Positions 1 to 48,607 of a DNA stretch of 50,068 nucleotides are shown in pieces; the stretch's first letter is position 1; each line of letters opens with the position of its first letter. The position numbers and the translations under genes were made by a program. The DNA is taken from positions 2,666,001 to 2,716,068 of the forward strand of contig OZ374565.1 of the NCBI GenBank assembly GCA_977862235.1, given 5' to 3'. Below the pieces are notes generated by a model that was not told the DNA's origin, did not search any database, and saw only the letters and a program-made list of their open reading frames with translations. Origin of the DNA: Dudresnaya verticillata. Its lineage: Eukaryota.

Positions 1-1082
1 ATCACAGAGTCTGTGGCTGGGGCGATTCCATCAGAGTCTAGAGCTGCTGCTGCCTTACTGTAGGCGCCCTCCTTTGCAAGGCGAAGGGCTCGTGAGGCAT
101 TGATACGGCGTTGCTCTTCTGCGGAAGGCGCAGTCTGCTCACGGAATGTCGAGCCCTTCAAGGCCTCCTGCCATAGGGCGTCGTAATCCTTGAGTCCCCA
201 GCGTCGGATTCGATCGCGGAAGGTGCCGATCGAGGACGCAGAGGTTGACGCGCTGGCCCTTGCACTCGCGGCGGGAGGATTGGACAAGACGGCTGCTGGA
301 AAAAGCAGGAATGCAGTGAGCTCTTTGGTGGCTTCCTGAGAGTTGGTTGCGTTCGTAAAAGCCCATACCGTCTTGGACAGTGCGTCGCGCACCTCGGCGC
401 GGACGCGAGACGGTATATGTGTGACCATAGGGATATGCGAGCGACAGATGTCTTCGACCGCCGGCAGAAGCTGCCCTCCTGGACCCCGCGCAACGGGTGG
501 GGTTTGCGCAGTTGGTACCTCTCGAGTAGCAGGTACCGGTGCAGGAGGCGGCTCCTGGCTGTCCGGGATTCGTCGCGGGGCTGGCAGGATATCGTCCGCT
601 GGCTCGCCGTCCTCGGGTTGCGTCTCCGTGACCGCGTCCAGAGCAGGAGACTGTGATGGCGCGGCTACAGTTTCTTCACGGCTCGGTGTCGTCAATTGGT
701 TGGACGGGACGTGGGAGAACGCCGGAGTGCGAGTAGCGGGACATGCGCTGCAATTCTTGTACCGCATACTGTACATGCCTTCACTGTTCATGCGGGAGCT
801 ACAGTGGGTGGGCATGTACTTGTTGTGAGTCACACAGTACCATACTCCATAGTCCAGGAGCTGCTGCTTGAGAGGCTCGATGTCGGTCCTCGTCGGTGGT
901 CCTCGCCTGCCAGGAACATGCATCTTCCGCAGGTGCATGAGTAGCGCTTCTACAGTAGGCAGTGAGGACGACTGGCAGCCCAGAGGACAGCTGGTACTGT
1001 TTGTCGGGCGGTGTTTTGCCGAAGGCATAAAGCATGGAGAGAGCCATACCTTCGGCATGTCGGGGTGCTGCTGACCAATCAT
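1..1082 (-). CDS. N-terminal part of RT-RLE polyprotein (runs off window start)
   Basis: ATG at 1082; same sequence as the N-terminus of ORF 3470..6958, including the C2H2 finger. Confidence 0.9.
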   Translation of the reverse strand, partial: MIGQQHPDMPKVWLSPCFMPSAKHRPTNSTSCPLGCQSSSLPTVEALLMHLRKMHVPGRRGPPTRTDIEPLKQQLLDYGVWYCVTHNKYMPTHCSSRMNSEGMYSMRYKNCSACPATRTPAFSHVPSNQLTTPSREETVAAPSQSPALDAVTETQPEDGEPADDILPAPRRIPDSQEPPPAPVPATREVPTAQTPPVARGPGGQLLPAVEDICRSHIPMVTHIPSRVRAEVRDALSKTVWAFTNATNSQEATKELTAFLLFPAAVLSNPPAASARASASTSASSIGTFRDRIRRWGLKDYDALWQEALKGSTFREQTAPSAEEQRRINASRALRLAKEGAYSKAAAALDSDGIAPATDSV

Positions 1083-1822
1083 GGTTACAGCGCTGGGTAA
1101 GGTACCTGTAAAGGTCCTCTACAGTAGGTTCCCACGGGGCACAGACCTCCTAACCGGGACGCAAGCCTGTCGTCCGTCGTCAGTCTGTTCGGGACACCTC
1201 CAGAGGGTGCTACAGGTGGCCTTGCTGCGAGATGAGGGCCTCTTCGCAGCGTAGGGCGCGAGATCGCGCACTTTGCGCACGAGCTCGCGCAAAAGGGCGC
1301 GCGTGTTAGCGTTCGTGCGCGCAGAGTTATCGGACGTTCCCTTCCCTGCCGCAGCTGAGAAGACTCTCTTCACTGCGGTCCTGTAACGCGCGGTACTTCT
1401 CGTTTGCACAAGCTCTCAATGGGGTCGCAGAACCACCGTTTACCTGTGAGTGCCCACAGGATTTTTGGCCTCCCCCGAAGGTTCGCTGGCAGGACGTTCG
1501 CTCGATCTTAGAAGGGGTGGTTTCAAAACAGGATCCACCAGGCTTAAGCCACGTTACCCCAACTTCGACGTTGCTTGGCACGTTTCTGCGATGAGCTTGT
1601 GGGTCACGAGCCGCCTACCACTCAAGGTCGAGGGTCTTTGGCGATTCCCACACTTGTAGGTCTCTCGGCACTTCCCGAAGGAAGATTTTACAGGACAAGC
1701 CTGGCCTTTACCAATCTGTCAGTTGAAGGGTGTGAAACCCCTCTGTCGACAGTCCACGGCAGCCTAGACAGAGTCTAGGCTGTGCCGGGTACAAGCAAAA
1801 CGCGTACAGGGCCAGGGAAAGA

Positions 1823-1868
1823 AAGATAAGTCAGTGGGGCCCGGGCAAATTTCAAGGTGAGGGATCAC
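1823..1868 (+). promoter_or_regulatory. 5S internal-control-region mimic (box A + box C) in element 5' UTR; also at 7699-7744, 8965-9010(-), 20158-20203, 30868-30913, 36997-37042, 43311-43356
   Basis: AAGATAAGTC-N22-AGGTGAGGGATCAC is identical in motif and spacing to 5S nt 51-60 and 83-96. Function is inferred. Confidence 0.6.
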
Positions 1869-1905
1869 CTTAAAAGTAAGCGCAAAATAGGAAACGCGTG
1901 ACCGT

Positions 1906-1946
1906 CGGCGACGACGGCGGCGGCGACGGCGGCGACGACGACGGCG
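1906..1946. repeat. GC-rich (CGG/CGA)n trinucleotide tract in element 5' UTR
   Basis: cggcgacgacggcggcggcgacggcggcgacgacgacggcg, present in every copy that has a 5' end. Confidence 0.8.
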
Positions 1947-2146
1947 TCGCGGCGCAGATCGGCGGCGCGGAAAGAGACAAAAGTAGACCGCGCTCGCCCG
2001 CCCGCGAAGGTGAAGGGCTGAAAAACCCCGCACCGACGCGCCGTCGCGCGCTCGAACAGGCGGCACCGCCGCCGAAAAGATCGGTGCAGAACTTGCTGAG
2101 AAATCTCCGAAACAAAAAATTCGGCAGATCGCGAGGGGTTCTCCGG

Positions 2147-3279: not shown

Positions 3280-3368
3280 ACATTCGGCCATACTACGCAG
3301 ACATGCTCCGTATCCCATCCCGAACTGCGAAGATAAGTCTCGTCAGGCTGGTTTAGTACTGAGGTGAG
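3280..3368 (+). pseudogene. 5S rRNA 5' part (nt 1-89), disrupted by copies 2+3; 3' half at 12624-12667
   Basis: ACATTCGGCCATAC...TTAGTACTGAGGTGAG, then the element 3' end TTCAAC. Confidence 0.93.
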
Positions 3369-6300
3369 TTCAACTTTATAACAGGTGACCATATTCTAAT
3401 ATTTGTCGACGTACAATCTACTGTAGTATCACAACAAAGTTAAACCCCAACTCAAAACAACCTGCACATCTACACCTCCTGTTGGATCCCTTCCATCAGG
3501 CACTTGACGTTGTTCTGCACCAGTCGCGCCGCGTGCCTGTGGAACAGAGCCGCTCGCGAAACACCGCGAGTTACCATGGCCCGAGAAGCCACGGTATCCG
3601 CCAACTCTTGCATATACTTGTGCGCCTCCGGGTGCCAGCCACCTAGTGTGGTCATCGGCACCGGCACAAGCCTTGCCCCCGGTCCGGCAGCCTGGATGAA
3701 GCCACGATAAGTCCGCACCTTGTCAGCGTGGGCGTTCTTCAGCGTCCCTTGCGGGTTTGTTATGCAGCTGAGAATGCGTTGTTCTGACGACAGTGGATGA
3801 CTGATTGTGACGTCCAGGTAGTCCGTTCCTCCTTCTGTTCCAAGCGCCTTGATGTCCGGCCGATCCAAGTGAGCCCCCACAGGGCGGGGCTCCACAATCG
3901 GGGTGCGTGTCGCACGTTTCAGATCCGAAGCCAGCAGACGAACCTGAGAGTCGTGGCGCCACGACCGAGGAGATCCGCTGTTCCGCATGCCGTTCGGACA
4001 AATCAGCAGATGGTCGCCGTGAACATCCATCATCTTCTTGCACCCGGCCCGAGGACACTCCGTGTCGGGTTCCAGCAGTGGAATCCGACAGTAGAATCGA
4101 AGCCATACGCGGTAGTCCCGATCCGCAATGTACGTCTTCATGCCTGGTGCCGGCTGGCACTTGAGCCAGTCCTTGGCGCCCGGCACGCCAAGGGAAGCTC
4201 GGAAAGCTTGCGTCCGCCTGTCCCCGAGCGGCAGCTCGGCTTGCACTTTCTTCAGAACCAACCGCGTCAAGTCCCGCTGGCGCGGGCACTCGTCGCTGTC
4301 GATCTTCTCCAGGTCCAGGGCATCCTCACTATGGCACTTGGCGCTCCAGTCTTCGTGCGCTTCTACTGCAAAAGGATCGTCAGAAAGAGCAGTGTTCACA
4401 GAAGCGGGTAAGATAGAACGCAGTAAGTTGCGGGTCAGTGAAAGGGACGCCAAAAACGCGCTCGAGTTCATGTCGCCAGCTCCCGAAATACCGATTCCGA
4501 AGCTGGGCTCTTTCGTGCGCAGGGGAAGCTGAAGTTCGCGGAAGGTGTCCCTCGGTAGGACTCCTCCCACGAGCTTGCGCATGCAAGCCTCAATCTTCTG
4601 GTCGAAGAGCTCGGCGCCCTTTGCCGTGGCGGATGATGGAACTACTCGCAGCAGGTAGTTCAGCCGGCAGACTCCGGCACAGTTGCGGAGTAGAGTGATG
4701 GCCACGTGTAGGTCTTCTAGTCCCGAAATTGCGTCCAGCAGGGGCTGGATGGACTCGACATGGCCATTCACGCTCTCCTCCATGTAGTTCTGCGTTCCAA
4801 TCGGAGCCTGAAGTACTGTAGTGCCTTCTCCGTAGCTCTGCCCAAGATCCGACGGGTAGGCAGCGCAGTCTTCTGGGTCGGGTGCAGTAGGCCACCAAAC
4901 AGTACACTTGTCCATGCGCAGGTGGAAGCCATAGCCCTTAGCTTCCTCGGAGTCAAAGAAGGACAGAACCTTCCTGAGTACGGCGTGTTTCGCCACGATG
5001 ACGCCGTCGTCCAGGTAGAACAGTGACAGCAGCAAGTTGTTCGCCCCCTCCGCTTGCTGATTGCGGCCCGAGCGCCGCAGGTCGGCGGTGAGTTCCTTCA
5101 ACTGTTTGATCAGTGCCTGCAGCACCAAAGCAAACAGTAACGGCCCGAGCGGGTCACCTTGCTGTACACCAGTGACACTCCGCAGTAGAGTGTCACCCAT
5201 CCACAGGTGCGGGCCCTCAGAGTCATAACAGTATCTGACCCACGGTAGTAGTTCAGGCATATGTCGGCGGACCTCCTTCATGAATGCTTTGCGGCTGACA
5301 AGGTTGAAGGCATTCTTCAAGTCCACTTGTAGCAACCCGTAGGACTTGTCATGGCCGTGAGACTTCTGCAGCTTCCGGACCGCGTGTACAATGGCTTCTG
5401 TGCCGCCCGAGGTTGCGACCCCGAGCTGAAGCGGTTCGAGGTATGCCTTGGCCTTGGGAGCGACTCTGGTCATGAGCATAGAGCTCACGAGTCGTCGGAT
5501 TGTCTCTCCTACAGCAATGGGGCGGACACCGCCGGTGCGCTTCTTCAGAGCCGTGAGAGGAGCGCTGGCAATCCAAGGCGACAGCTCCGCAGGTCCTGCG
5601 CCGCTGGCCAGCACGTTGACCATTTTGGTGAGCCCGCCAAGCAGGCCCGTGTGCTCGTGAGTGGTCGGGACTGAGAGCAGTTCCTGCAGATGCGTCGGTG
5701 ATAGTCCTGTTCCCCCCGAGGCCGAAGCCCGGGGGAACTTGGCCACTGCTTTTCGTACTTCGTCGGCTGTGAAAGGCACGAAGTCAGGCATGGTCGGCAG
5801 CGGTTCGGACTGGTCAAGCTCGTGGTCCGCGTCGGTTTGCGGTACGGACTGCGGGTGCTTGTCCTTCATGGACTGTATCACAGAGTCTGTGGCTGGGGCG
5901 ATTCCATCAGAGTCTAGAGCTGCTGCTGCCTTACTGTAGGCGCCCTCCTTTGCAAGGCGAAGGGCTCGTGAGGCATTGATACGGCGTTGCTCTTCTGCGG
6001 AAGGCGCAGTCTGCTCACGGAATGTCGAGCCCTTCAAGGCCTCCTGCCATAGGGCGTCGTAATCCTTGAGTCCCCAGCGTCGGATTCGATCGCGGAAGGT
6101 GCCGATCGAGGACGCAGAGGTTGACGCGCTGGCCCTTGCACTCGCGGCGGGAGGATTGGACAAGACGGCTGCTGGAAAAAGCAGGAATGCAGTGAGCTCT
6201 TTGGTGGCTTCCTGAGAGTTGGTTGCGTTCGTAAAAGCCCATACCGTCTTGGACAGTGCGTCGCGCACCTCGGCGCGGACGCGAGACGGTATATGTGTGA

Positions 6301-8022
6301 CCATAGGGATATGCGAGCGACAGATGTCTTCGACCGCCGGCAGAAGCTGCCCTCCTGGACCCCGCGCAACGGGTGGGGTTTGCGCAGTTGGTACCTCTCG
6401 AGTAGCAGGTACCGGTGCAGGAGGCGGCTCCTGGCTGTCCGGGATTCGTCGCGGGGCTGGCAGGATATCGTCCGCTGGCTCGCCGTCCTCGGGTTGCGTC
6501 TCCGTGACCGCGTCCAGAGCAGGAGACTGTGATGGCGCGGCTACAGTTTCTTCACGGCTCGGTGTCGTCAATTGGTTGGACGGGACGTGGGAGAACGCCG
6601 GAGTGCGAGTAGCGGGACATGCGCTGCAATTCTTGTACCGCATACTGTACATGCCTTCACTGTTCATGCGGGAGCTACAGTGGGTGGGCATGTACTTGTT
6701 GTGAGTCACACAGTACCATACTCCATAGTCCAGGAGCTGCTGCTTGAGAGGCTCGATGTCGGTCCTCGTCGGTGGTCCTCGCCTGCCAGGAACATGCATC
6801 TTCCGCAGGTGCATGAGTAGCGCTTCTACAGTAGGCAGTGAGGACGACTGGCAGCCCAGAGGACAGCTGGTACTGTTTGTCGGGCGGTGTTTTGCCGAAG
6901 GCATAAAGCATGGAGAGAGCCATACCTTCGGCATGTCGGGGTGCTGCTGACCAATCATGGTTACAGCGCTGGGTAAGGTACCTGTAAAGGTCCTCTACAG
7001 TAGGTTCCCACGGGGCACAGACCTCCTAACCGGGACGCAAGCCTGTCGTCCGTCGTCAGTCTGTTCGGGACACCTCCAGAGGGTGCTACAGGTGGCCTTG
7101 CTGCGAGATGAGGGCCTCTTCGCAGCGTAGGGCGCGAGATCGCGCACTTTGCGCACGAGCTCGCGCAAAAGGGCGCGCGTGTTAGCGTTCGTGCGCGCAG
7201 AGTTATCGGACGTTCCCTTCCCTGCCGCAGCTGAGAAGACTCTCTTCACTGCGGTCCTGTAACGCGCGGTACTTCTCGTTTGCACAAGCTCTCAATGGGG
7301 TCGCAGAACCACCGTTTACCTGTGAGTGCCCACAGGATTTTTGGCCTCCCCCGAAGGTTCGCTGGCAGGACGTTCGCTCGATCTTAGAAGGGGTGGTTTC
7401 AAAACAGGATCCACCAGGCTTAAGCCACGTTACCCCAACTTCGACGTTGCTTGGCACGTTTCTGCGATGAGCTTGTGGGTCACGAGCCGCCTACCACTCA
7501 AGGTCGAGGGTCTTTGGCGATTCCCACACTTGTAGGTCTCTCGGCACTTCCCGAAGGAAGATTTTACAGGACAAGCCTGGCCTTTACCAATCTGTCAGTT
7601 GAAGGGTGTGAAACCCCTCTGTCGACAGTCCACGGCAGCCTAGACAGAGTCTAGGCTGTGCCGGGTACAAGCAAAACGCGTACAGGGCCAGGGAAAGAAA
7701 GATAAGTCAGTGGGGCCCGGGCAAATTTCAAGGTGAGGGATCACCTTAAAAGTAAGCGCAAAATAGGAAACGCGTGACCGTCGGCGACGACGGCGGCGGC
7801 GACGGCGGCGACGACGACGGCGTCGCGGCGCAGATCGGCGGCGCGGAAAGAGACAAAAGTAGACCGCGCTCGCCCGCCCGCGAAGGTGAAGGGCTGAAAA
7901 ACCCCGCACCGACGCGCCGTCGCGCGCTCGAACAGGCGGCACCGCCGCCGAAAAGATCGGTGCAGAACTTGCTGAGAAATCTCCGAAACAAAAAATTCGG
8001 CAGATCGCGAGGGGTTCTCCGG
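3369..8022 (-). mobile_element. Full-length CRE-like RLE non-LTR retrotransposon, copy 2 (4,654 bp)
   Basis: Flanked by 13-bp TSD (3356-3368 / 8023-8035); ~1.06-kb 5' UTR, intact ORF, 101-bp 3' UTR. Confidence 0.95.
3470..6958 (-). CDS. RT-restriction-like endonuclease polyprotein, 1162 aa
   Basis: C-x3-C-x13-H-x4-H finger; RT motifs GGVRPIAVGE, DLKNAFN, GVQQGDPLGP, YLDD; C-x4-C-x9-H-x3-C knuckle; RHD, RPD, DVT and K of the RLE. Confidence 0.96.
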   Translation of the reverse strand: MIGQQHPDMPKVWLSPCFMPSAKHRPTNSTSCPLGCQSSSLPTVEALLMHLRKMHVPGRRGPPTRTDIEPLKQQLLDYGVWYCVTHNKYMPTHCSSRMNSEGMYSMRYKNCSACPATRTPAFSHVPSNQLTTPSREETVAAPSQSPALDAVTETQPEDGEPADDILPAPRRIPDSQEPPPAPVPATREVPTAQTPPVARGPGGQLLPAVEDICRSHIPMVTHIPSRVRAEVRDALSKTVWAFTNATNSQEATKELTAFLLFPAAVLSNPPAASARASASTSASSIGTFRDRIRRWGLKDYDALWQEALKGSTFREQTAPSAEEQRRINASRALRLAKEGAYSKAAAALDSDGIAPATDSVIQSMKDKHPQSVPQTDADHELDQSEPLPTMPDFVPFTADEVRKAVAKFPRASASGGTGLSPTHLQELLSVPTTHEHTGLLGGLTKMVNVLASGAGPAELSPWIASAPLTALKKRTGGVRPIAVGETIRRLVSSMLMTRVAPKAKAYLEPLQLGVATSGGTEAIVHAVRKLQKSHGHDKSYGLLQVDLKNAFNLVSRKAFMKEVRRHMPELLPWVRYCYDSEGPHLWMGDTLLRSVTGVQQGDPLGPLLFALVLQALIKQLKELTADLRRSGRNQQAEGANNLLLSLFYLDDGVIVAKHAVLRKVLSFFDSEEAKGYGFHLRMDKCTVWWPTAPDPEDCAAYPSDLGQSYGEGTTVLQAPIGTQNYMEESVNGHVESIQPLLDAISGLEDLHVAITLLRNCAGVCRLNYLLRVVPSSATAKGAELFDQKIEACMRKLVGGVLPRDTFRELQLPLRTKEPSFGIGISGAGDMNSSAFLASLSLTRNLLRSILPASVNTALSDDPFAVEAHEDWSAKCHSEDALDLEKIDSDECPRQRDLTRLVLKKVQAELPLGDRRTQAFRASLGVPGAKDWLKCQPAPGMKTYIADRDYRVWLRFYCRIPLLEPDTECPRAGCKKMMDVHGDHLLICPNGMRNSGSPRSWRHDSQVRLLASDLKRATRTPIVEPRPVGAHLDRPDIKALGTEGGTDYLDVTISHPLSSEQRILSCITNPQGTLKNAHADKVRTYRGFIQAAGPGARLVPVPMTTLGGWHPEAHKYMQELADTVASRAMVTRGVSRAALFHRHAARLVQNNVKCLMEGIQQEV

Positions 8023-8035
8023 GTACTGAGGTGAG

Positions 8036-11000
8036 TTCAACTTTATAACAGGGGACCATATTCTAATATTTGTCGACGTACAATCTACTGTAGTATCACA
8101 ACAAAGTTAAACCCCCAACTCAAAACAACTTGCACATCTACACCTCCTGTTGGATCCCTTCCATCAGGCACTTGACGTTGTTCTGTACCAGTCGCGCCGC
8201 GTGCCTGTGGAATAGAGCCGCTCGCGAAACACCGCGAGTTACCATGGCCCGAGAAGCCACGGTATCCGCCAACTCTTGCATATACTTGTGCGCCTCCGGG
8301 TGCCAGCCACCTAGTGTGGTCATCGGCACCGGCACAAGCCTTGCCCCCGGTCCGGCAGCCTGGATGAAGCCACGGTAAGTCCGCACCTTGTCAGCGTGGG
8401 CGTTCTTCAGCGTCCCTTGCGGGTTTGTTATGCAGCTGAGAATGCGTTGTTCTGACGACAGTGGATGACTGATTGTGACGTCCAGGTAGTCCGTTCCTCC
8501 TTCTGTTCCAAGCGCCTTGATGTCTGGCCGATCCAGGTGAGCCCCCACCGGGCGGGGCTCCACAATCGGGGTGCGTGTCGCACGTTTCAGATCCGAAGCC
8601 AGCAGACGAACCTGAGAGTCGTGGCGCCACGACCGAGGAGAACCGCTGTTCCGCATGCCGTTCGGACAAATCAGCAGATGGTCGCCCCTCAGTACCCCTC
8701 GCGATCTGCCGAATTTTTTGTTTCGGAGATTTCTCAGCAAGTTCTGCACCGATCTTTTCGGCGGCGGTGCCGCCTGTTCGAGCGCGCGACGGCGCGTCGG
8801 TGCGGGGTTTTTCAGCCCTTCACCTTCGCGGGCGGGCGAGCGCGGTCTACTTTTGTCTCTTTCCGCGCCGCCGATCTGCGCCGCGACGCCGTCGTCGTCG
8901 CCGCCGTCGCCGCCGCCGTCGTCGCCGACGGTCACGCGTTTCCTATTTTGCGCTTACTTTTAAGGTGATCCCTCACCTTGAAATTTTCCCGGGCCCCACT
9001 GACTTATCTTTCTTTCCCTGGCCCTGTACGCGTTTTGCTTGTACCCGGCACAGCCTAGACTCTGTCTAGGCTGCCGTGGACTGTCGACAGAGGGGTTTCA
9101 CACCCTTCAACTGACAGATTGGTAAAGGCCAGGCTTGTCCTGTAAAATCTTCCTTCGGGAAGTGCCGAGAGACCTACAAGTGTGGGAATCGCCAAAGACC
9201 CTCGACCTTGAGTGGTAGGCGGCTCGTGACCCACAAGCTCATCGCAGAAACGTGCCAAGCAACGTCGAAGTTGGGGTAACGTGGCTTAAGCCTGGTGGAT
9301 CCTGTTTTGAAACCACCCCTTCTAAGATCGAGCGAACGTCCTGCCAGCGAACCTTCGGGGGAGGCCAAAAATCCTGTGGGCACTCACAGGTAAACGGTGG
9401 TTCTGCGACCCCATTGAGAGCTTGTGCAAACGAGAAGTACCGCGCGTTACAGGACCGCAGTGAAGAGAGTCTTCTCAGCTGCGGCAGGGAAGGGAACGTC
9501 CGATAACTCTGCGCGCACGAACGCTAACACGCGCGCCCTTTTGCGCGAGCTCGTGCGCAAAGTGCGCGATCTCGCGCCCTACGCTGCGAAGAGGCCCTCA
9601 TCTCGCAGCAAGGCCACCTGTAGCACCCTCTGGAGGTGTCCCGAACAGACTGACGACGGACGACAGGCTTGCGTCCCGGTTAGGAGGTCTGTGCCCCGTG
9701 GGAACCTACTGTAGAGGACCTTTACAGGTACCTTACCCAGCGCTGTAACCATGATTGGTCAGCAGCACCCCGACATGCCGAAGGTATGGCTCTCTCCATG
9801 CTTTATGCCTTCGGCAAAACACCGCCCGACAAACAGTACCAGCTGTCCTCTGGGCTGCCAGTCGTCCTCACTGCCTACTGTAGAAGCGCTACTCATGCAC
9901 CTGCGGAAGATGCATGTTCCTGGCAGGCGAGGACCACCGACGAGGACCGACATCGAGCCTCTCAAGCAGCAGCTCCTGGACTATGGAGTATGGTACTGTG
10001 TGACTCACAACAAGTACATGCCCACCCACTGTAGCTCCCGCATGAACAGTGAAGGCATGTACAGTATGCGGTACAAGAATTGCAGCGCATGTCCCGCTAC
10101 TCGCACTCCGGCGTTCTCCCACGTCCCGTCCAACCAATTGACGACACCGAGCCGTGAAGAAACTGTAGCCGCGCCATCACAGTCTCCTGCTCTGGACGCG
10201 GTCACGGAGACGCAACCCGAGGACGGCGAGCCAGCGGACGATATCCTGCCAGCCCCGCGACGAATCCCGGACAGCCAGGAGCCGCCTCCTGCACCGGTAC
10301 CTGCTACTCGAGAGGTACCAACTGCGCAAACCCCACCCGTTGCGCGGGGTCCAGGAGGGCAGCTTCTGCCGGCGGTCGAAGACATCTGTCGCTCGCATAT
10401 CCCTATGGTCACACATATACCGTCTCGCGTCCGCGCCGAGGTGCGCGACGCACTGTCCAAGACGGTATGGGCTTTTACGAACGCAACCAACTCTCAGGAA
10501 GCCACCAAAGAGCTCACTGCATTCCTGCTTTTTCCAGCAGCCGTCTTGTCCAATCCTCCCGCGGCGAGTGCAAGGGCCAGCGCGTCAACCTCTGCGTCCT
10601 CGATCGGCACCTTCCGCGATCGAATCCGACGCTGGGGACTCAAGGATTACGACGCCCTATGGCAGGAGGCCTTGAAGGGCTCGACATTCCGTGAGCAGAC
10701 TGCGCCTTCCGCAGAAGAGCAACGCCGTATCAATGCCTCACGAGCCCTTCGCCTTGCAAAGGAGGGCGCCTACAGTAAGGCAGCAGCAGCTCTAGACTCT
10801 GATGGAATCGCCCCAGCCACAGACTCTGTGATACAGTCCATGAAGGACAAGCACCCGCAGTCCGTACCGCAAACCGACGCGGACCACGAGCTTGACCAGT
10901 CCGAACCGCTGCCGACCATGCCTGACTTCGTGCCTTTCACAGCCGACGAAGTACGAAAAGCAGTGGCCAAGTTCCCCCGGGCTTCGGCCTCGGGGGGAAC

Positions 11001-12623
11001 AGGACTATCACCGACCCATCTGCAGGAACTGCTCTCAGTCCCGACCACTCACGAGCACACGGGCCTGCTTGGCGGGCTCACCAAAATGGTCAACGTGCTG
11101 GCCAGCGGCGCAGGACCTGCGGAGCTGTCGCCTTGGATTGCCAGCGCTCCTCTCACGGCTCTGAAGAAGCGCACCGGCGGTGTCCGCCCCATTGCTGTAG
11201 GAGAGACAATCCGACGACTCGTGAGCTCTATGCTCATGACCAGAGTCGCTCCCAAGGCCAAGGCATACCTCGAACCGCTTCAGCTCGGGGTCGCAACCTC
11301 GGGCGGCACAGAAGCCATTGTACACGCGGTCCGGAAGCTGCAGAAGTCTCACGGCCATGACAAGTCCTACGGGTTGCTACAAGTGGACTTGAAGAATGCC
11401 TTCAACCTTGTCAGCCGCAAAGCATTCATGAAGGAGGTCCGCCGACATATGCCTGAACTACTACCGTGGGTCAGATACTGTTATGACTCTGAGGGCCCGC
11501 ACCTGTGGATGGGTGACACTCTACTGCGGAGTGTCACTGGTGTACAGCAAGGTGACCCGCTCGGGCCGTTACTGTTTGCTTTGGTGCTGCAGGCACTGAT
11601 CAAACAGTTGAAGGAACTCACCGCCGACCTGCGGCGCTCGGGCCGCAATCAGCAAGCGGAGGGGGCGAACAACTTGCTGCTGTCACTGTTCTACCTGGAC
11701 GACGGCGTCATCGTGGCGAAACACGCCGTACTCAGGAAGGTTCTGTCCTTCTTTGACTCCGAGGAAGCTAAGGGCTATGGCTTCCACCTGCGCATGGACA
11801 AGTGTACTGTTTGGTGGCCTACTGCACCCGACCCAGAAGACTGCGCTGCCTACCCGTCGGATCTTGGGCAGAGCTACGGAGAAGGCACTACAGTACTTCA
11901 GGCTCCGATTGGAACGCAGAACTACATGGAGGAGAGCGTGAATGGCCATGTCGAGTCCATCCAGCCCCTGCTGGACGCAATTTCGGGACTAGAAGACCTA
12001 CACGTGGCCATCACTCTACTCCGCAACTGTGCCGGAGTCTGCCGGCTGAACTACCTGCTGCGAGTAGTTCCATCATCCGCCACGGCAAAGGGCGCCGAGC
12101 TCTTCGACCAGAAGATTGAGGCTTGCACGCGCAAGCTCGTGGGAGGAGTCCTACCGAGGGACACCTTCCGCGAACTTCAGCTTCCCCTGCGCACGAAAGA
12201 GCCCAGCTTCGGAATCGGTATTTCGGGAGCTGGAGACATGAACTCGAGCGCGTTTTTGGCATCCCTTTCACTGACCCGCAACTTACTGCGTTCTATCTTA
12301 CCCGCTTCTGTGAACACTGCTCTTTCTGACGATCCTTTTGCAGTAGAAGCGCACGAAGCCTGGAGCGCCAAGTGCCATAGTGAGGATGCCCTGGACCTGG
12401 AGAAGATCGACAGCGACGAGTGCCCGCGCCAGCGGGACTTGACGCGGTTGGTACTGAAGAAAGTGCAAGCCGAGCTGCCGCTCGGGGACAGGCGGACTCA
12501 AGCTTTCCGAGCTTCCCTTGGCGTGCCGGGCGCCAAGGACTGGCTCAAGTGCCAGCCGGCACCAGGCATGAAGACGTACATTGCGGATCGGGACTACCGC
12601 GTATGGCTTCGATTCTACTGTCG
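8036..12623. mobile_element. Copy 3: 5'-inverted (twin-primed) insertion; 3' part 8036-8686 (-), 5' part ~8696-12623 (+)
   Basis: Orientation switch at 8686/8687, ~66-bp internal deletion, flanked by TSDs 8023-8035 and 12624-12636. Confidence 0.92.
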
Positions 12624-13756: not shown

Positions 13757-13876
13757 ACATTCGGCCATACTACGCAGACATGCTCCGTATCCCATCCCGA
13801 ACTGCGAAGATAAGTCTCGTCAGGCTGGTTTAGTACTGAGGTGAGGGATCACTCTGGAATCGCCAGTGCCGAATGT
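13757..13876 (+). rRNA. 5S rRNA, intact
   Basis: 120 nt; helix I ACATTCGGC/GCCGAATGT; conserved eukaryotic 5S motifs GGCCATAC, CGAAC, GAAG.TAAG, TTAGTACT, GGAAT; T-run terminator. Confidence 0.95.
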
Positions 13877-14965
13877 TTTTATTTTTTTGCACCTCATTCC
13901 TTCCTCCCCGCCGCCCTCTGCGTACATTGCTGCCTTGCATACCTCTCCCACAGAATCCCCGACCCACTGCCTCTGTACAGCGTATTCTTTTCACTCGCAC
14001 TTTTCCCCTTTTCTTGTAAGTGGGAGGGAGTCTGAGAGTGTTTGCAGGTGTCTAGGGGTTGTTTAGGGTTAGGTCTAGGGTTAGTTTGGTTACTGTGGTA
14101 CGCGAGGGGCATGATATTGGGAGGGTAAAGGGTCTAGTGTTGGTGCATGGAATGAATCATGGTGGTGGAAGGAATGGATCAGTGTGGTGGATGAATTGGA
14201 TTTAGGGACATAGAATTGGATTAGATTTAGTACCCAGAAGATTGGATCAAGGATCACCACAATCGGATCAAGTCTGGTGGCTGGGGTGAGGGTGGCTTGG
14301 ACGTTTGTGCTCATAACTTTGGAACGGCTGGGGCTAGGGAGCTGCTCAGTAGCTGAATCGAAGCGTCTCGTTGCTGCGCATTGCGTAGCGCTCTTACCCT
14401 CCTAAATCGACTTTTTGGCGCGTTTCTATGGTGCAAAACGTCCCCACGGGCCGTCGGCAGCTTTTGAGCAGATCAAATAGGGGTTTGGGGCATGTATGGT
14501 TATGGGTGGGTTTAGGGGTGTTAGGGATGTGTCATTTTAACGCGTTTAGGAGTGTAGGGAGTGGGAATGAAAGTAGTAAGGATGAGGAAATGGAAAGGGA
14601 AGGATGAGAAAGTATAGTACAATGCAGTAATACAAATCACGGAATGCATCAGGTTGGGATCCAATAAGGGTGGATGGATTGGATCAACGGAAGTCAAGGC
14701 GTTATAGGATTGGATCTAGGGGCTCTGTAAATTAGATTGGGTGCTGGTTTCATTGAACCAAGGGGTCAGAACGTCCATGAGCTGGTTGACTGTATTTATA
14801 TTGAATCCTGCGTTTAGAGTAAATGGTATACGGTTATGGGTCATTACTTTAATGCTCCACGTGTACACTACAGTCGGATGGACATTGGACGCAGGAGTCT
14901 TTAGTCGATGACGGGGAGTGCAGTTGATGGCGCATTTAAATAGGGGTACGGCGGGAACAGCAAGC

Positions 14966-15054: not shown

Positions 15055-15813
15055 TTCAACTTTATAACAGGTGATCATATTCTAATATTTGTCGACGTAC
15101 AATCTACTGTAGTATCACAACAAAGTTAAACCCCAACTCAAAACAACTTGCACATCTACACCTCCTGTTGGATCCCTTCCATCAGGCACTTGACGTTGTT
15201 CTGCACCAGTCGCGCCGCGTGCCTGTGGAATAGAGCCGCTCGCGAAACACCGCGAGTTACCATGGCCCGAGAAGCCACAGTATCCGCCAACTCTTGCATG
15301 TACTTGTGCGCCTCCGGGTGCCAGCCACCTAGTGTGGTCATCGGCACCGGCACAAGTCTTGCCCCCGGTCCGGCAGCCTGGATGAAGCCACGGTAAGTCC
15401 GCACCTTGTCAGCGTGGGCGTTCTTCAGCGTCCCTTGCGGGTTTGTTATGCAGCTGAGAATGCGTTGTTCTGACGACAGTGGATGACTGATTGTGACGTC
15501 CAGGTAGTCCGTTCCTCCTTCTGTTCCAAGCGCCTTGATGTCCGGCCGATCCAGGTGAGCCCCCACAGGGCGGGGCTCCACAATCGGGGTGCGTGTCGCA
15601 CGTTTCAGATCCGAAGCCAGCAGACGAACCTGAGAGTCGTGGCGCCACGACCGAGGAGATCCGCTGTTCCGCATGCCGTTCGGACAAATCAGCAGATGGT
15701 CGCCGTGAACATCCATCATCTTCTTGCACCCGGCCCGAGGACACTCCGTGTCGGGTTCCAGCAGTGGAATCCGACAGTAGAATCGAAGCCATACGCGGTA
15801 GTCCCGATCCGCA
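15055..15813 (-). mobile_element. Copy 4, 5'-truncated (759 bp; endonuclease region and 3' UTR)
   Basis: Precise 3' end; truncated at ...GATCCGCA, then TSD 15814-15826. Confidence 0.92.
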
Positions 15814-15826
15814 GTACTGAGGTGAG

Positions 15827-18800
15827 TTCAACTTTATAACAGGGGACCATATTCTAATATTTGTCGACGTACAATCTACTGTAGTATCACAACAAAGTTA
15901 AACCCCCAACTCAAAACAACTTGCACATCTACACCTCCTGTTGGATCCCTTCCATCAGGCACTTGACGTTGTTCTGTACCAGTCGCGCCGCGTGCCTGTG
16001 GAATAGAGCCGCTCGCGAAACACCGCGAGTTACCATGGCCCGAGAAGCCACGGTATCCGCCAACTCTTGCATATACTTGTGCGCCTCCGGGTGCCAGCCA
16101 CCTAGTGTGGTCATCGGCACCGGCACAAGCCTTGCCCCCGGTCCGGCAGCCTGGATGAAGCCACGGTAAGTCCGCACCTTGTCAGCGTGGGCGTTCTTCA
16201 GCGTCCCTTGCGGGTTTGTTATGCAGCTGAGAATGCGTTGTTCTGACGACAGTGGATGACTGATTGTGACGTCCAGGTAGTCCGTTCCTCCTTCTGTTCC
16301 AAGCGCCTTGATGTCTGGCCGATCCAGGTGAGCCCCCACCGGGCGGGGCTCCACAATCGGGGTGCGTGTCGCACGTTTCAGATCCGAAGCCAGCAGACGA
16401 ACCTGAGAGTCGTGGCGCCACGACCGAGGAGAACCGCTGTTCCGCATGCCGTTCGGACAAATCAGCAGATGGTCGCCGTGAACATCCATCTTCTTCTTGC
16501 ACCCGGCCCGAGGACACTCCGTGTCGGGTTCCAGCAGTGGGATCTGACAGTAGAATCGAAGCCATACGCGGTAGTCCCGATCCGCAATGTACGTCTTCAT
16601 GCCTGGTGCCGGCTGGCACTTGAGCCAGTCCTTGGCGCCCGGCACGCCAAGGGAAGCTCGGAAAGCTTGAGTCCGCCTGTCCCCGAGCGGCAGCTCGGCT
16701 TGCACTTTCTTCAGTACCAACCGCGTCAAGTCCCGCTGGCGCGGGCACTCGTCGCTGTCGATCTTCTCCAGGTCCAGGGCATCCTCACTATGGCACTTGG
16801 CGCTCCAGGCTTCGTGCGCTTCTACTGCAAAAGGATCGTCAGAAAGAGCAGTGTTCACAGAAGCGGGTAAGATAGAACGCAGTAAGTTGCGGGTCAGTGA
16901 AAGGGATGCCAAAAACGCGCTCGAGTTCATGTCTCCAGCTCCCGAAATACCGATTCCGAAGCTGGGCTCTTTCGTGCGCAGGGGAAGCTGAAGTTCGCGG
17001 AAGGTGTCCCTCGGTAGGACTCCTCCCACGAGCTTGCGCGTGCAAGCCTCAATCTTCTGGTCGAAGAGCTCGGCGCCCTTTGCCGTGGCGGATGATGGAA
17101 CTACTCGCAGCAGGTAGTTCAGCCGGCAGACTCCGGCACAGTTGCGGAGTAGAGTGATGGCCACGTGTAGGTCTTCTAGTCCCGAAATTGCGTCCAGCAG
17201 GGGCTGGATGGACTCGACATGGCCATTCACGCTCTCCTCCATGTAGTTCTGCGTTCCAATCGGAGCCTGAAGTACTGTAGTGCCTTCTCCGTAGCTCTGC
17301 CCAAGATCCGACGGGTAGGCAGCGCAGTCTTCTGGGTCGGGTGCAGTAGGCCACCAAACAGTACACTTGTCCATGCGCAGGTGGAAGCCATAGCCCTTAG
17401 CTTCCTCGGAGTCAAAGAAGGACAGAACCTTCCTGAGTACGGCGTGTTTCGCCACGATGACGCCGTCGTCCAGGTAGAACAGTGACAGCAGCAAGTTGTT
17501 CGCCCCCTCCGCTTGCTGATTGCGGCCCGAGCGCCGCAGGTCGGCGGTGAGTTCCTTCAACTGTTTGATCAGTGCCTGCAGCACCAAAGCAAACAGTAAC
17601 GGCCCGAGCGGGTCACCTTGCTGTACACCAGTGACACTCCGCAGTAGAGTGTCACCCATCCACAGGTGCGGGCCCTCAGAGTCATAACAGTATCTGACCC
17701 ACGGTAGTAGTTCAGGCATATGTCGGCGGACCTCCTTCATGAATGCTTTGCGGCTGACAAGGTTGAAGGCATTCTTCAAGTCCACTTGTAGCAACCCGTA
17801 GGACTTGTCATGGCCGTGAGACTTCTGCAGCTTCCGGACCGCGTGTACAATCGCTTCTGTGCCGCCCGAGGTTGCGACCCCGAGCTGAAGCGGTTCGAGG
17901 TATGCCTTGGCCTTGGGAGCGACTCTGGTCATGAGCATAGAGCTCACGAGTCGTCGGATTGTCTCTCCTACAGCAATGGGGCGGACACCGCCGGTGCGCT
18001 TCTTCAGAGCCGTGAGAGGAGCGCTGGCAATCCAAGGCGACAGCTCCGCAGGTCCTGCGCCGCTGGCCAGCACGTTGACCATTTTGGTGAGCCCGCCAAG
18101 CAGGCCCGTGTGCTCGTGAGTGGTCGGGACTGAGAGCAGTTCCTGCAGATGCGTCGGTGATAGTCCTGTTCCCCCCGAGGCCGAAGCCCGGGGGAACTTG
18201 GCCACTGCTTTTCGTACTTCGTCGGCTGTGAAAGGCACGAAGTCAGGCATGGTCGGCAGCGGTTCGGACTGGTCAAGCTCGTGGTCCGCGTCGGTTTGCG
18301 GTACGGACTGCGGGTGCTTGTCCTTCATGGACTGTATCACAGAGTCTGTGGCTGGGGCGATTCCATCAGAGTCTAGAGCTGCTGCTGCCTTACTGTAGGC
18401 GCCCTCCTTTGCAAGGCGAAGGGCTCGTGAGGCATTGATACGGCGTTGCTCTTCTGCGGAAGGCGCAGTCTGCTCACGGAATGTCGAGCCCTTCAAGGCC
18501 TCCTGCCATAGGGCGTCGTAATCCTTGAGTCCCCAGCGTCGGATTCGATCGCGGAAGGTGCCGATCGAGGACGCAGAGGTTGACGCGCTGGCCCTTGCAC
18601 TCGCCGCGGGAGGATTGGACAAGACGGCTGCTGGAAAAAGCAGGAATGCAGTGAGCTCTTTGGTGGCTTCCTGAGAGTTGGTTGCGTTCGTAAAAGCCCA
18701 TACCGTCTTGGACAGTGCGTCGCGCACCTCGGCGCGGACGCGAGACGGTATATGTGTGACCATAGGGATATGCGAGCGACAGATGTCTTCGACCGCCGGC

Positions 18801-20479
18801 AGAAGCTGCCCTCCTGGACCCCGCGCAACGGGTGGGGTTTGCGCAGTTGGTACCTCTCGAGTAGCAGGTACCGGTGCAGGAGGCGGCTCCTGGCTGTCCG
18901 GGATTCGTCGCGGGGCTGGCAGGATATCGTCCGCTGGCTCGCCGTCCTCGGGTTGCGTCTCCGTGACCGCGTCCAGAGCAGGAGACTGTGATGGCGCGGC
19001 TACAGTTTCTTCACGGCTCGGTGTCGTCAATTGGTTGGACGGGACGTGGGAGAACGCCGGAGTGCGAGTAGCGGGACATGCGCTGCAATTCTTGTACCGC
19101 ATACTGTACATGCCTTCACTGTTCATGCGGGAGCTACAGTGGGTGGGCATGTACTTGTTGTGAGTCACACAGTACCATACTCCATAGTCCAGGAGCTGCT
19201 GCTTGAGAGGCTCGATGTCGGTCCTCGTCGGTGGTCCTCGCCTGCCAGGAACATGCATCTTCCGCAGGTGCATGAGTAGCGCTTCTACAGTAGGCAGTGA
19301 GGACGACTGGCAGCCCAGAGGACAGCTGGTACTGTTTGTCGGGCGGTGTTTTGCCGAAGGCATAAAGCATGGAGAGAGCCATACCTTCGGCATGTCGGGG
19401 TGCTGCTGACCAATCATGGTTACAGCGCTGGGTAAGGTACCTGTAAAGGTCCTCTACAGTAGGTTCCCACGGGGCACAGACCTCCTAACCGGGACGCAAG
19501 CCTGTCGTCCGTCGTCAGTCTGTTCGGGACACCTCCAGAGGGTGCTACAGGTGGCCTTGCTGCGAGATGAGGGCCTCTTCGCAGCGTAGGGCGCGAGATC
19601 GCGCACTTTGCGCACGAGCTCGCGCAAAAGGGCGCGCGTGTTAGCGTTCGTGCGCGCAGAGTTATCGGACGTTCCCTTCCCTGCCGCAGCTGAGAAGACT
19701 CTCTTCACTGCGGTCCTGTAACGCGCGGTACTTCTCGTTTGCACAAGCTCTCAATGGGGTCGCAGAACCACCGTTTACCTGTGAGTGCCCACAGGATTTT
19801 TGGCCTCCCCCGAAGGTTCGCTGGCAGGACGTTCGCTCGATCTTAGAAGGGGTGGTTTCAAAACAGGATCCACCAGGCTTAAGCCACGTTACCCCAACTT
19901 CGACGTTGCTTGGCACGTTTCTGCGATGAGCTTGTGGGTCACGAGCCGCCTACCACTCAAGGTCGAGGGTCTTTGGCGATTCCCACACTTGTAGGTCTCT
20001 CGGCACTTCCCGAAGGAAGATTTTACAGGACAAGCCTGGCCTTTACCAATCTGTCAGTTGAAGGGTGTGAAACCCCTCTGTCGACAGTCCACGGCAGCCT
20101 AGACAGAGTCTAGGCTGTGCCGGGTACAAGCAAAACGCGTACAGGGCCAGGGAAAGAAAGATAAGTCAGTGGGGCCCGGGCAAATTTCAAGGTGAGGGAT
20201 CACCTTAAAAGTAAGCGCAAAATAGGAAACGCGTGACCGTCGGCGACGACGGCGGCGGCGACGGCGGCGACGACGACGGCGTCGCGGCGCAGATCGGCGG
20301 CGCGGAAAGAGACAAAAGTAGACCGCGCTCGCCCGCCCGCGAAGGTGAAGGGCTGAAAAACCCCGCACCGACGCGCCGTCGCGCGCTCGAACAGGCGGCA
20401 CCGCCGCCGAAAAGATCGGTGCAGAACTTGTTGAGATATCCGCGAAACAAAAATTTCGGCAGATCGCTGAGGGAGTCGC
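15827..20479 (-). mobile_element. Full-length copy 5
   Basis: TSDs 15814-15826 / 20480-20492. Confidence 0.95.
15929..19417 (-). CDS. RT-RLE polyprotein, 1162 aa
   Basis: Same motifs as 3470..6958, with few substitutions. Confidence 0.95.
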   Translation of the reverse strand: MIGQQHPDMPKVWLSPCFMPSAKHRPTNSTSCPLGCQSSSLPTVEALLMHLRKMHVPGRRGPPTRTDIEPLKQQLLDYGVWYCVTHNKYMPTHCSSRMNSEGMYSMRYKNCSACPATRTPAFSHVPSNQLTTPSREETVAAPSQSPALDAVTETQPEDGEPADDILPAPRRIPDSQEPPPAPVPATREVPTAQTPPVARGPGGQLLPAVEDICRSHIPMVTHIPSRVRAEVRDALSKTVWAFTNATNSQEATKELTAFLLFPAAVLSNPPAASARASASTSASSIGTFRDRIRRWGLKDYDALWQEALKGSTFREQTAPSAEEQRRINASRALRLAKEGAYSKAAAALDSDGIAPATDSVIQSMKDKHPQSVPQTDADHELDQSEPLPTMPDFVPFTADEVRKAVAKFPRASASGGTGLSPTHLQELLSVPTTHEHTGLLGGLTKMVNVLASGAGPAELSPWIASAPLTALKKRTGGVRPIAVGETIRRLVSSMLMTRVAPKAKAYLEPLQLGVATSGGTEAIVHAVRKLQKSHGHDKSYGLLQVDLKNAFNLVSRKAFMKEVRRHMPELLPWVRYCYDSEGPHLWMGDTLLRSVTGVQQGDPLGPLLFALVLQALIKQLKELTADLRRSGRNQQAEGANNLLLSLFYLDDGVIVAKHAVLRKVLSFFDSEEAKGYGFHLRMDKCTVWWPTAPDPEDCAAYPSDLGQSYGEGTTVLQAPIGTQNYMEESVNGHVESIQPLLDAISGLEDLHVAITLLRNCAGVCRLNYLLRVVPSSATAKGAELFDQKIEACTRKLVGGVLPRDTFRELQLPLRTKEPSFGIGISGAGDMNSSAFLASLSLTRNLLRSILPASVNTALSDDPFAVEAHEAWSAKCHSEDALDLEKIDSDECPRQRDLTRLVLKKVQAELPLGDRRTQAFRASLGVPGAKDWLKCQPAPGMKTYIADRDYRVWLRFYCQIPLLEPDTECPRAGCKKKMDVHGDHLLICPNGMRNSGSPRSWRHDSQVRLLASDLKRATRTPIVEPRPVGAHLDRPDIKALGTEGGTDYLDVTISHPLSSEQRILSCITNPQGTLKNAHADKVRTYRGFIQAAGPGARLVPVPMTTLGGWHPEAHKYMQELADTVASRAMVTRGVSRAALFHRHAARLVQNNVKCLMEGIQQEV

Positions 20480-31184: not shown

Positions 31185-31209
31185 GTACTGAGGTGAGTAC
31201 TGAGGTGAG

Positions 31210-31444
31210 TTCAACTTTATAACAGGTGATCATATTCTAATATTTGTCGACGTACAATCTACTGTAGTATCACAACAAAGTTAAACCCCAACTCAAAACA
31301 ACTTGCACATCTACACCTCCTGTTGGATCCCTTCCATCAGGCACTTGACGTTGTTCTGCACCAGTCGCGCCGCGTGCCTGTGGAATAGAGCCGCTCGCGA
31401 AACACCGCGAGTTACCATGGCCCGAGAAGCCACAGTATCCGCCA
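31210..31444 (-). mobile_element. Copy 7, 5'-truncated (235 bp)
   Basis: Element 3' end, then TSD 31445-31457. Confidence 0.9.
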
Positions 31445-43627: not shown

Positions 43628-43652
43628 GTACTGAGGTGAGTACTGAGGTGAG

Positions 43653-43887
43653 TTCAACTTTATAACAGGTGATCATATTCTAATATTTGTCGACGTACAA
43701 TCTACTGTAGTATCACAACAAAGTTAAACCCCAACTCAAAACAACTTGCACATCTACACCTCCTGTTGGATCCCTTCCATCAGGCACTTGACGTTGTTCT
43801 GCACCAGTCGCGCCGCGTGCCTGTGGAATAGAGCCGCTCGCGAAACACCGCGAGTTACCATGGCCCGAGAAGCCACAGTATCCGCCA
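43653..43887 (-). mobile_element. Copy 10, 5'-truncated (235 bp; duplicate of copy 7)
   Basis: Same truncation point as copy 7; TSD 43888-43900. Confidence 0.9.
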
Positions 43888-43900
43888 GTACTGAGGTGAG

Positions 43901-43950
43901 TTCAACTTTATAACAGGTGATCATATTCTAATATTTGTCGACGTACAATC
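43901..43950 (-). mobile_element. Copy 11, 50-bp 3'-UTR-only insertion
   Basis: TTCAACTTT...GTACAATC, then (A)GTACTGAGGTGAG. Confidence 0.88.
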
Positions 43951-48100: not shown

Positions 48101-48607
48101 TGTGACCATAGGGATATGCGAGCGACAGATATCTTCGACCGCCGGCAGAAGCTGCCCTCCTGGACCCCGCGCAGCGTGTCGGGTTTGCGCAGTTGGTACC
48201 ACTTGAGTAGCTGGTACCGGTACAGGAGGCGGCTCCTGGCTGTCCGGGATTCGTCGCGGGGCTGGCAGGATATCGTCCGCCGGCTCGCCGTCCTCGGGTT
48301 GCGTCTCCGTGACCGCGTCCAGAGCAGGAGTCTGTGATGGCGCGGCTACAGTTTCTTCACGGCTCGGTGTCGTCAATTGGTTGGACGGGACGTGGGAGAA
48401 CGCCGGAGTGCGAGTGGCAGGACATGCGCTGCAATTCTTGTACCGCATACTGTACATGCCTTCACTGTTCATGCGGGAGCTACAGTGGGTAGGCATGTAC
48501 TTGTTGTGAGTCACACAGTACCATACTCCATAGTCCAGGAGCTGCTGCTTGAGAGGCTCGATGTCGGTCCTCGTCGGTGGTCCTCGCCTGCCAGGAACAT
48601 GCATCTT
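45174..48607 (-). mobile_element. Copy 12, 5'-truncated and capped by the telomere
   Basis: Element sequence stops at ...CATGCATCTT and continues as TAGGGG; no second TSD. Confidence 0.93.
45275..48604 (-). pseudogene. RT-RLE ORF lacking the first 53 aa (C2H2 finger) and the 5' UTR, 1109 aa
   Basis: Open frame from internal Met54; RT and RLE motifs intact. Confidence 0.8.

Follow-up and report, generated by a model that had tools for sequence, protein, structure and literature searches.

A probable CRE-like RLE retrotransposon inserted antisense at one nucleotide of the 5S rRNA genes in a chromosome-end array of Dudresnaya verticillata

Elements of the CRE clade (CRE1, CRE2, SLACS and CZAR; MoTeR, Cnl1 and FoTeR) are described as having a single ORF that encodes one or more zinc fingers, a reverse transcriptase (RT) and a restriction-like endonuclease (RLE) (PMC12278014, PMC12857005). 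One or two zinc-finger-like motifs are located at the N terminus, a 3′ poly(A) tail is reported to be general in the trypanosomatid members (both PMC12278014), and the REL motif is given as C-X1-3-C-X7-8-H-X3-4-C-X9-10-RHD-X19-33-E-X9-21-RPD-X12-14-D (PMC12857005). Like these elements, the one discussed here is inserted site-specifically into a tandem multicopy repeat with duplication of the target (PMC12278014, PMC12857005). Unlike them, its target is nt 89/90 of the 5S rRNA gene, rather than spliced-leader genes or telomere repeats. It also differs in having no poly(A) at its junctions, slightly longer spacers in the CCHC part, a separate clade and copies of 5S promoter boxes.

Mutsu, which is also found in 5S rRNA genes, has an APE endonuclease and belongs to the Tx1 clade. 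This zebrafish non-LTR element is specific for 5S rRNA genes; it has two ORFs, is L1-type by its Repbase names, carries a poly(A) tail and targets the 5′ half of the gene (PMC5340908). Membership of Mutsu was rejected for the present element, which has one ORF, an RLE, no poly(A) and a different 5S site. Dada-5S likewise resides in 5S rRNA genes (PMC8869645), but it is a fish DNA transposon with an unrelated enzyme, and Jockey-like elements are described as interrupting a beetle 5S-satellite array. Among RLE elements, Utopia and NeSL insert into small-RNA genes and form arrays separated by target remnants; the targets given are U2, the spliced leader, tRNA-Pro/Arg/Glu, 28S and microsatellites (PMC4640811), in contrast to 5S here. 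The term "5S rRNA" is absent from the main text of that paper, the supplementary target lists of which may bear on novelty, and no named NeSL or Utopia protein is among the matches listed for our element.

The 5S array and its insertions

The window, i.e., the whole 50,068-nucleotide stretch analysed (contig OZ374565.1), is a chromosome end in which a tandem 5S rDNA array with a 1209-bp unit leads into ~1460 bases of telomere (Table 1). Twelve 5S genes are present, five of them intact and seven interrupted, the element lying backwards at one position in each of the latter; it accounts for ~72% of the 48.6 kb that precede the telomere. The spacers are highly homogeneous, since 11 stretches of 1120 bases (5S 3′ end plus spacer) differ by one base in all. 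Rfam searches of the spacer for other RNA families (E up to 10) returned chance-level rows only, and a spliced-leader gene hidden in the spacer was rejected on the same result.

Table 1. Coordinates, in the window, of the element copies, the 5S genes and the features of the full-length copy B1.
Feature	Position	Strand	Remarks
Copy A	1..2146	-	clipped by window start; matches B1 including 5′ junction
Interrupted 5S gene, left remnant (nt 1-89)	3280..3368	+	left target-site duplication copy = 3356-3368
Copy B1, full-length element	3369..8022	-	4654 bp; 5′ region ~1064 nt, ORF, 3′ UTR 101 nt
ORF from first ATG	3470..6958	-	1162 aa; stop-to-stop frame 3470-6994, 1174 codons, P0001
CCHC knuckle and restriction-like endonuclease motif	3812..4057	-	aa 980-1061; RHD...E...RPD...D
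RT core	4895..5545	-	aa 484-700; Pfam RVT_1, YLDD
N-terminal zinc-binding region	6617..6865	-	aa 44-126; C2H2-like finger and C-x2-H...C-x2-C cluster
5S internal-promoter mimic in element 5′ region	7699..7744	+	same strand as 5S, antisense to ORF
Box A copy (5S nt 51-60)	7699-7708	+	10/10 match to host gene
Box C copy (5S nt 83-96)	7731-7744	+	14/14 match to host gene
Right target-site duplication copy (5S nt 77-89)	8023..8035	+	regenerated target; copy B2 entered here
Copy B2	8036..12623	mixed	650 nt of 3′ end, 9 target nt, inverted remainder 8696-12623; twin-priming-type
B2 internal target bases (5S nt 77-85, inverted)	8687-8695		junction reading
Intact 5S rRNA gene	13757..13877	+	four further intact genes at 21613, 22822, 24031, 25240
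Tandem C	15055..20479	-	759-nt 5′-truncated copy 15055-15813, duplication, full-length copy 15827-20479
Tandem D	26538..31444	-	full-length copy 26538-31184, then 235-nt copy
D2 extra 12 nt of target	31198-31209		ahead of 235-nt copy
Copy E	32667..37758	-	full length, 410-nt internal piece 37323-37732 and repeated 5′-terminal 26 nt; template-jump structure
Tandem F	38981..43951	-	D duplicate and extra 50-nt copy 43901-43951 at right-hand site
Copy G	45174..48607	-	3434 nt of 3′ part, fused directly to telomere repeats
Telomere	48608..50068	+	TTTAGGGG 137/179 units, TTTTAGGGG 33 units

The 3′ end of the element is seen 11 times in the window, each time directly after the 13-mer of 5S nt 77-89, and at all 11 junctions the copy is antisense to 5S. 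Six junctions follow 5S nt 1-89 and five an earlier element copy in tandem; at two (one event, duplicated) the 13-mer is followed by a second, 12-nt copy of nt 78-89. None of the 11 has an A tract. The insertion point is inside box C of the 5S gene, and the window holds no insertion in spacer (~12 kb) or nested in element DNA (~35 kb). An earlier note, made from the sequence alone, had claimed 11 identical 3′ junctions, a constant antisense orientation, one target site inside box C and avoidance of both the spacer and the element itself, and all of this is borne out in the window. It had also given the target-site duplication as 13 bp and sometimes 14 bp. Here, 13 bp is the reading for only two of the eight independent complete insertions, while six are readable as 14-15 bp, and the fourteenth base in the 50-nt copy F3 does not come from the element, which makes the stagger either 13 or 14. 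The bottom-strand nick predicted near 76/77 is equally likely at 75/76. The copies show the hallmarks of TPRT, namely a fixed 3′ end, variable 5′ truncation and a target-site duplication.

How many insertion events do these junctions represent? Copy A, the twelfth in addition to the 11 with a visible 3′ end, shows 0 differences from B1 in 2146 bases and blocks D and F are identical across 5009, leaving nine independent events (B1, B2, C1, C2, D1, D2, E, F3 and G), of which eight are complete insertions. These exact duplicates, together with SNP patterns that are mosaic between copies, would be expected if one or two old insertions had been spread by unequal crossing-over or assembler duplication with no ongoing specific transposition. 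However, the nine events have nine distinct 5′ ends, all at one 5S nucleotide, and every complete insertion has its own duplication. Moreover, truncated copies of 50, 235 and 759 nt are present, and the element copies, with as many as 55 differences in 4643 bases, are far more divergent than the spacers. Such spreading is thus extremely unlikely, and a single insertion dispersed by array recombination was rejected on the distinct 5′ ends, the separate duplications and the divergence in excess of the spacers. Several source lineages thus entered a homogeneous array.

Intact 1174-codon frames are found in five copies, as stated in the earlier note, but only four are independent because blocks D and F are identical. 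Variants in the ORF comprise 47 synonymous changes at 885 sites and 20 nonsynonymous changes at 2637 sites. The resulting ratio of ~0.14, with five stop-free copies, shows recent activity under purifying selection; this much of the suggestion that the element is currently active stands, while activity at present is something we infer from sequence. In one DNA sequencing run (share 0.07), the element was represented by traces only, at depth 2-3, and the 5S of a related organism appeared at high depth; among the read loose ends listed (6 of 20 in each of two mappings of the run), none matched an element junction.

The protein and its relatives

The single ORF encodes an RT followed by a CCHC knuckle and a PD-(D/E)xK-type endonuclease, with no APE domain and no LTR. 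Its N-terminal zinc-finger-like motifs, C44-C48-H62-H67 and C95-H98-C123-C126, are common to the close relatives. This region, which a disordered linker separates from the RT, is likely to function in DNA recognition. The layout proposed earlier, C2H2-RT-CCHC-PD..D..K, is recovered in that zinc finger, RT, CCHC and RLE were all found; the finger is, however, non-canonical (C-X3-C-X13-H-X4-H, one residue above the canonical pattern, which goes unmatched), and a second cluster is present. All residues of the REL motif occur in P0001, with spacings of 4, 9, 3, 13, 19, 9 and 13. Compared with the CRE pattern given above, the three catalytic spacings and the H-C spacing fit, and three others are 1-3 residues longer. 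In addition, K1092 aligns with the R2 lysine.

The AlphaFold model of P0001 (pLDDT 83) has R2 structures as its top seven Foldseek rows. VIA-align, in contrast, gave a better score to LINE-1 ORF2p (Z 24.9 and rmsd 4.9 over 699 aligned residues) than to R2, which came second (Z 21.2 and rmsd 5.2 over 701), so the fold supports the class of the enzyme, not its clade. Alignment to R2 over the whole length (model 252-1173) gave Z 20.7 and rmsd 6.3 for 771 residues. No Foldseek match at E 0.001 was obtained for the poorly modelled N-terminal domain (pLDDT 57.7), and the ESM Atlas returned unnamed RT clusters only.

The element resembles R2 in its overall RT-RLE fold and, as far as the junctions suggest, in recognition upstream of the nick, in template jumping and in a role for downstream RNA homology, all of which are described for R2 (PMC13586686). 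It differs from R2 in its non-28S target and in its antisense placement, so that, unlike R2, it would not be co-transcribed with the host gene; moreover, the solved R2 proteins score at most 34 bits against P0001 (in a search separate from the one that returned SLACS, below). Membership of R2 was rejected, the target being 5S and not 28S. Two further tests, which concern the zinc finger plus Myb N terminus and the 5′ HDV-like ribozyme of R2, are weak ones: a Myb domain was not detected, and a home-made descriptor of HDV-like ribozymes, run with no positive control, matched neither the 5′ region (0 hits) nor any of 10 shuffled versions. Rfam searches of the 5′ region (E up to 10) yielded chance-level rows only.

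With respect to relatives, sixteen proteins at 36-57% identity to P0001 sit above a gap, and related fragments reach 73-80%. In an RT tree that includes 116 of the 121 proteins (midpoint root, no outgroup and no named references; P0003, P0018, P0025, P0058 and P0070 left out by a length filter), the query and 15 of these sixteen fall into one clade with support 1.0. A Diplonema "SLACS 132 kDa protein" (39% over 208 aa, 113 bits) is the only match whose name refers to an element. The earlier assignment to a CRE-like RLE element agrees with the RLE domains and with SLACS as the nearest named match; placement within the CRE clade proper is putative. We consider it well supported that the element is CRE-like, the nearest named match being SLACS-like and the clade a separate one, and we are nearly certain that it is a real, young, site-specific RLE retrotransposon.

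The clade itself is likely red-algal. A total of 131 related loci were collected (80 from metagenomes and 51 from genome bins); nhmmer found 5S in none of them, Rfam, applied to 20 of the 80 metagenome loci, found nothing, and the best box score was 16/24. Viral contigs yielded no relative and no box pattern. Only four of the 131 belong to the close clade, none being among the nearest relatives, and only one, L002 (P0015), has both flanks. This clade member, at 39% identity, is broken; its surroundings are rich in genes, and no 5S occurs within 6 kb on either side. It lies near a syntaxin-18 gene, of whose 27 matches three name a species, and these are from Gracilariopsis, Agarophyton and Gracilaria, all red algae. 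A Ulp1 protease domain is present in L002 and in three relatives from the clade, as in some NeSL families and one Utopia family (PMC4640811).

Given that 5S is absent from the gene-rich red-algal surroundings of L002, and that strict and relaxed specificity coexist among Utopia families (PMC4640811), the element might have a mere preference for 5S; it would then insert at short-motif sites throughout the genome, and the array would be a hot spot. Yet nine of nine independent events fall on one nucleotide, neither the spacer nor the element DNA of the window was hit, and the 14-base core that spans the nick, present seven times within element DNA, went unused there. A mere preference is hence unlikely. 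Targeting of 5S is established for this element family in one 48.6-kb array only, and the word "strictly" applies to the window.

The insertion reaction as read from the junctions

Several features can be read directly from the sequence: where and in which orientation the element is inserted, the target duplication, the domain motifs, the internal boxes and the truncated, inverted and jumped copies. Taken as a whole, the element is very probably a single-ORF CRE-like non-LTR retrotransposon that inserts antisense at 5S nt 89/90, likely by TPRT. Its protein is predicted to read nt 77-121 of the gene and to cut the strands at positions 13-14 bases apart. According to the model, the transcript would start within the upstream duplication and read through into the downstream one. 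The plus strand corresponds to the cDNA strand, which places the first nick on the 5S sense strand at 89/90. The endonuclease would nick at this position, and the target-matching 3′ end of the RNA would pair with the freed primer; in-register pairing would account for a junction that is always the same and has no poly(A). The duplication would then result from a second nick, at either 75/76 or 76/77. The target site would thereby be rebuilt on the 5′ side of the element, where later copies could stack head to tail. Where completion failed, the outcome would be the truncated, inverted and template-jumped copies, and possibly the final copy with its telomere cap.

Tandems seem to lengthen on the right, where the target has been regenerated. 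In both informative cases (2/2), a block equals another with one copy added on the right: F corresponds to D and B to A. Deletion between short repeats could also derive D from F and A from B, in which case these two cases would no longer speak for growth on the right.

If tandems do grow in this way, new copies enter a rebuilt site that keeps nt 77-121 and is without nt 1-76, so recognition would lie within 5S nt 77-121. The core that spans nt 83-96 occurs seven times inside the element copies in the window and was used as an insertion site in none; bases within 77-82 or 97-121 are therefore needed. The recognition side deduced in this way is upstream in element orientation. R2 is likewise reported to bind the upstream side and to read an upstream DNA motif directly (PMC13586686).

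The ends of the RNA may have left traces as well. The 3′ junction of D2 opens with 12 target bases, an extra copy of nt 78-89, as would be produced if the RNA had run into the downstream duplication and primed out of register. Target bases are also seen at 5′ ends, namely nine in the inverted arm of B2 (nt 77-85), six in E and three in C2, which suggests that the RNA starts inside the upstream duplication. These data suggest that the RNA carries target sequence at both ends. For E and D1, fold-back synthesis is an alternative source of the 5′ extras. The structure of copy E reads as two template jumps. Copy G stops 3434 bases in and continues, after a TT overlap, as telomere. Telomerase might have extended an unfinished cDNA here, the cDNA strand being the G-rich strand, or might have healed a later break; telomere healing of breaks has been reported for MoTeR (PMC7367193).

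Internal 5S promoter boxes and their implications

Two blocks in the 5′ region of the element match the host 5S gene exactly and lie at the exact 5S spacing on one diagonal in all seven copies that span the region. On the basis of Xenopus coordinates and TFIIIA contacts, we take these blocks to be box A and box C, and the site between them to be the intermediate element. The latter matches at 4 of 6 positions, including G71 and G72, and the sequence around the boxes has diverged (matches 9/50 before, 6/22 between and 6/25 after). The joint run length of the boxes is 24, compared with at most 19 in 5000 dinucleotide shuffles (0/5000), and when the 14-mer was taken as fixed, 16 of 200000 trials produced another run of 10 along that diagonal. 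Host-identical 5S boxes at fixed spacing with divergent filler are known from the Cassandra and Ajax TRIMs and from SINE3 (PMC10853983), and the pattern here is the same. However, those elements are non-autonomous and the promoter drives their own transcription, whereas here the boxes are antisense and the element is autonomous and also 5S-targeting.

Most likely, the boxes represent a captured 5S promoter that selection for host TFIIIA binding would have kept, and the neighbouring 5S gene is their likely source. Candidate roles are that they may direct an antisense Pol III RNA, open the chromatin or act as a decoy. No run of four T occurs on the Pol III transcript path from ~7649 to the end of the element; for such a transcript, the terminator in the 5S remnant would be a possible stop. 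Two observations speak against a plain promoter role. A TATA-like element is absent upstream of the internal boxes; the real 5S gene has one ~30 bases upstream. In addition, the region of the box C copy folds into a hairpin of 11 pairs that is perfect in the element RNA alone, and part of the conservation of the box C copy may be due to RNA structure.

The location of the nick raises the possibility that Pol III factors on the 5S gene (TFIIIA or TFIIIC) tether the element, with the reading of sequence by the protein in a lesser role. The nick is within box C, box C is kept in the regenerated targets, and the element has boxes of its own. On the other hand, the internal copy with both boxes was never hit, tandem targets that do not have box A were hit at the same base, and R2 reads its upstream DNA motif directly (PMC13586686). 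We regard tethering as improbable. In another scenario, the box C copy would serve as an RNA guide, the element RNA being complementary to the nicked strand for seven bases on either side of the nick; its 14-base match (5S nt 83-96) is indeed centred on 89/90 and is the same as in the host gene. These 14 bases are, however, buried in the 11-pair hairpin, and the presence of box A at exact spacing suggests a DNA promoter, which makes a guide function very unlikely. The 5′-truncated copies are inserted with equal precision but derive from full RNAs and hence do not decide the matter.

Returning to the captured promoter, the fullest reading of the locus is that it represents a red-algal RLE lineage not described before, with strict specificity for 5S nt 89/90 and a captured promoter that would recruit TFIIIA/Pol III for antisense RNA or 5S-type chromatin. 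We put this combination forward tentatively, as somewhat less probable than its negation. If true, the element would ruin box C in each gene that it invades and yet supply a box A and a box C matched to the host, and one autonomous element would unite targeting of the R2 kind with promoter mimicry of the Cassandra kind.

That this may be an undescribed RLE family with a new target, as the earlier note proposed, is upheld as far as the searchable literature goes: full-text searches returned no 5S-targeting RLE element, Repbase, Dfam, patents and most subscription papers being outside their scope. It is probable, then, that 5S is an undescribed target for RLE elements. The lineage also lies outside the screen of Fell et al. 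2025, which according to a review covered 4464 animal assemblies (PMC13586686). New here are what appears to be right-hand tandem growth, the target sequence that the junctions suggest at both RNA ends, and the internal copy of box A and box C. The earlier note is silent on these boxes, on the inverted and template-jumped copies and on the telomere.

Site-specific RLE retrotransposons underlie RNA-only gene insertion tools, and the published tools use the 28S-specific R2 (PMC13708176). This set would gain a compact, intact enzyme that has a different multicopy target and a precise 3′ junction, as a possible starting point only. For the biology of these elements, the locus would add a third way of targeting 5S, independent of Mutsu and Dada-5S, and within the literature searched no earlier one uses an RLE enzyme. 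Moreover, by-products of the reaction lie side by side in one array, and from this natural series both the recognition side and the RNA ends can be mapped. Finally, the internal promoter copy raises the question of how expression and control work in a parasite that lies antisense in Pol III genes.

Surroundings of the internal promoter copy and the RNA 5′ end

A second, weaker pair of box A- and box C-like sequences lies 153 bases beyond the first pair in the element 5′ region, and its matches (6/10 for box A and 8/14 for box C) are, taken alone, within background. On the minus strand, the element 5′ end (7640-8035) is predicted to fold more stably than shuffled sequences (z = -4.6; 0 of 100 shuffles). 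The other features of this region, together with the telomere, are listed in the table.

Features near the element 5′ end and at the chromosome end (window coordinates)
Feature	Position	Remarks
Inverted repeat, perfect, 10-bp	7636-7658	Where +1 of a 5S gene would fall relative to the internal boxes
CGG/CGA microsatellite	7779-7825	Inside the folded element 5′ end
Second box A/box C-like pair	7852-7897	
Telomere	48608-50068	Main unit TTTAGGGG, 137/179 units; variants TTTTAGGGG

One literature search turned up the main telomere unit solely as a variant in Arabidopsis. The 5S spacer carries six telomere-like T(2-4)AG(2-4) words.

Partial 5S matches and relatives of the element protein

When DNA sequencing run X1 was compared with window 13740-13900, several contigs from another organism aligned solely over 5S nt 51 to ~97-112, with unrelated flanks, and two contigs of that organism start at 5S nt 75. 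These partial matches may be copies of the promoter alone, or may mark a comparable insertion junction in that organism's DNA.

Several members of the clade that holds the element protein have an Ulp1 (Peptidase_C48) protease domain preceding the RT (P0006, P0008, P0126; L002:4541-5797). Eukaryote-type non-LTR RT genes also occur at 51 loci (L081-L131) in bins labelled bacteria, many of them from one bin; these probably represent contaminating host DNA. The distant relatives (~30% identity; P0018, P0047, P0054, and others) include proteins annotated from flowering plants (Asteraceae, spinach, Ranunculus) as well as some with Em-prefixed identifiers, taken here as those of a sponge, which would place them in animals.

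Variation among element copies

SNP patterns across all element copies in the window are mosaic; for example, the full-length copy D1 and the telomere-joined copy G have variants in common at element positions 2586-3318 and not elsewhere. Such mosaic patterns in the aligned copies point to recombination or template switching, which would have taken place between element lineages.
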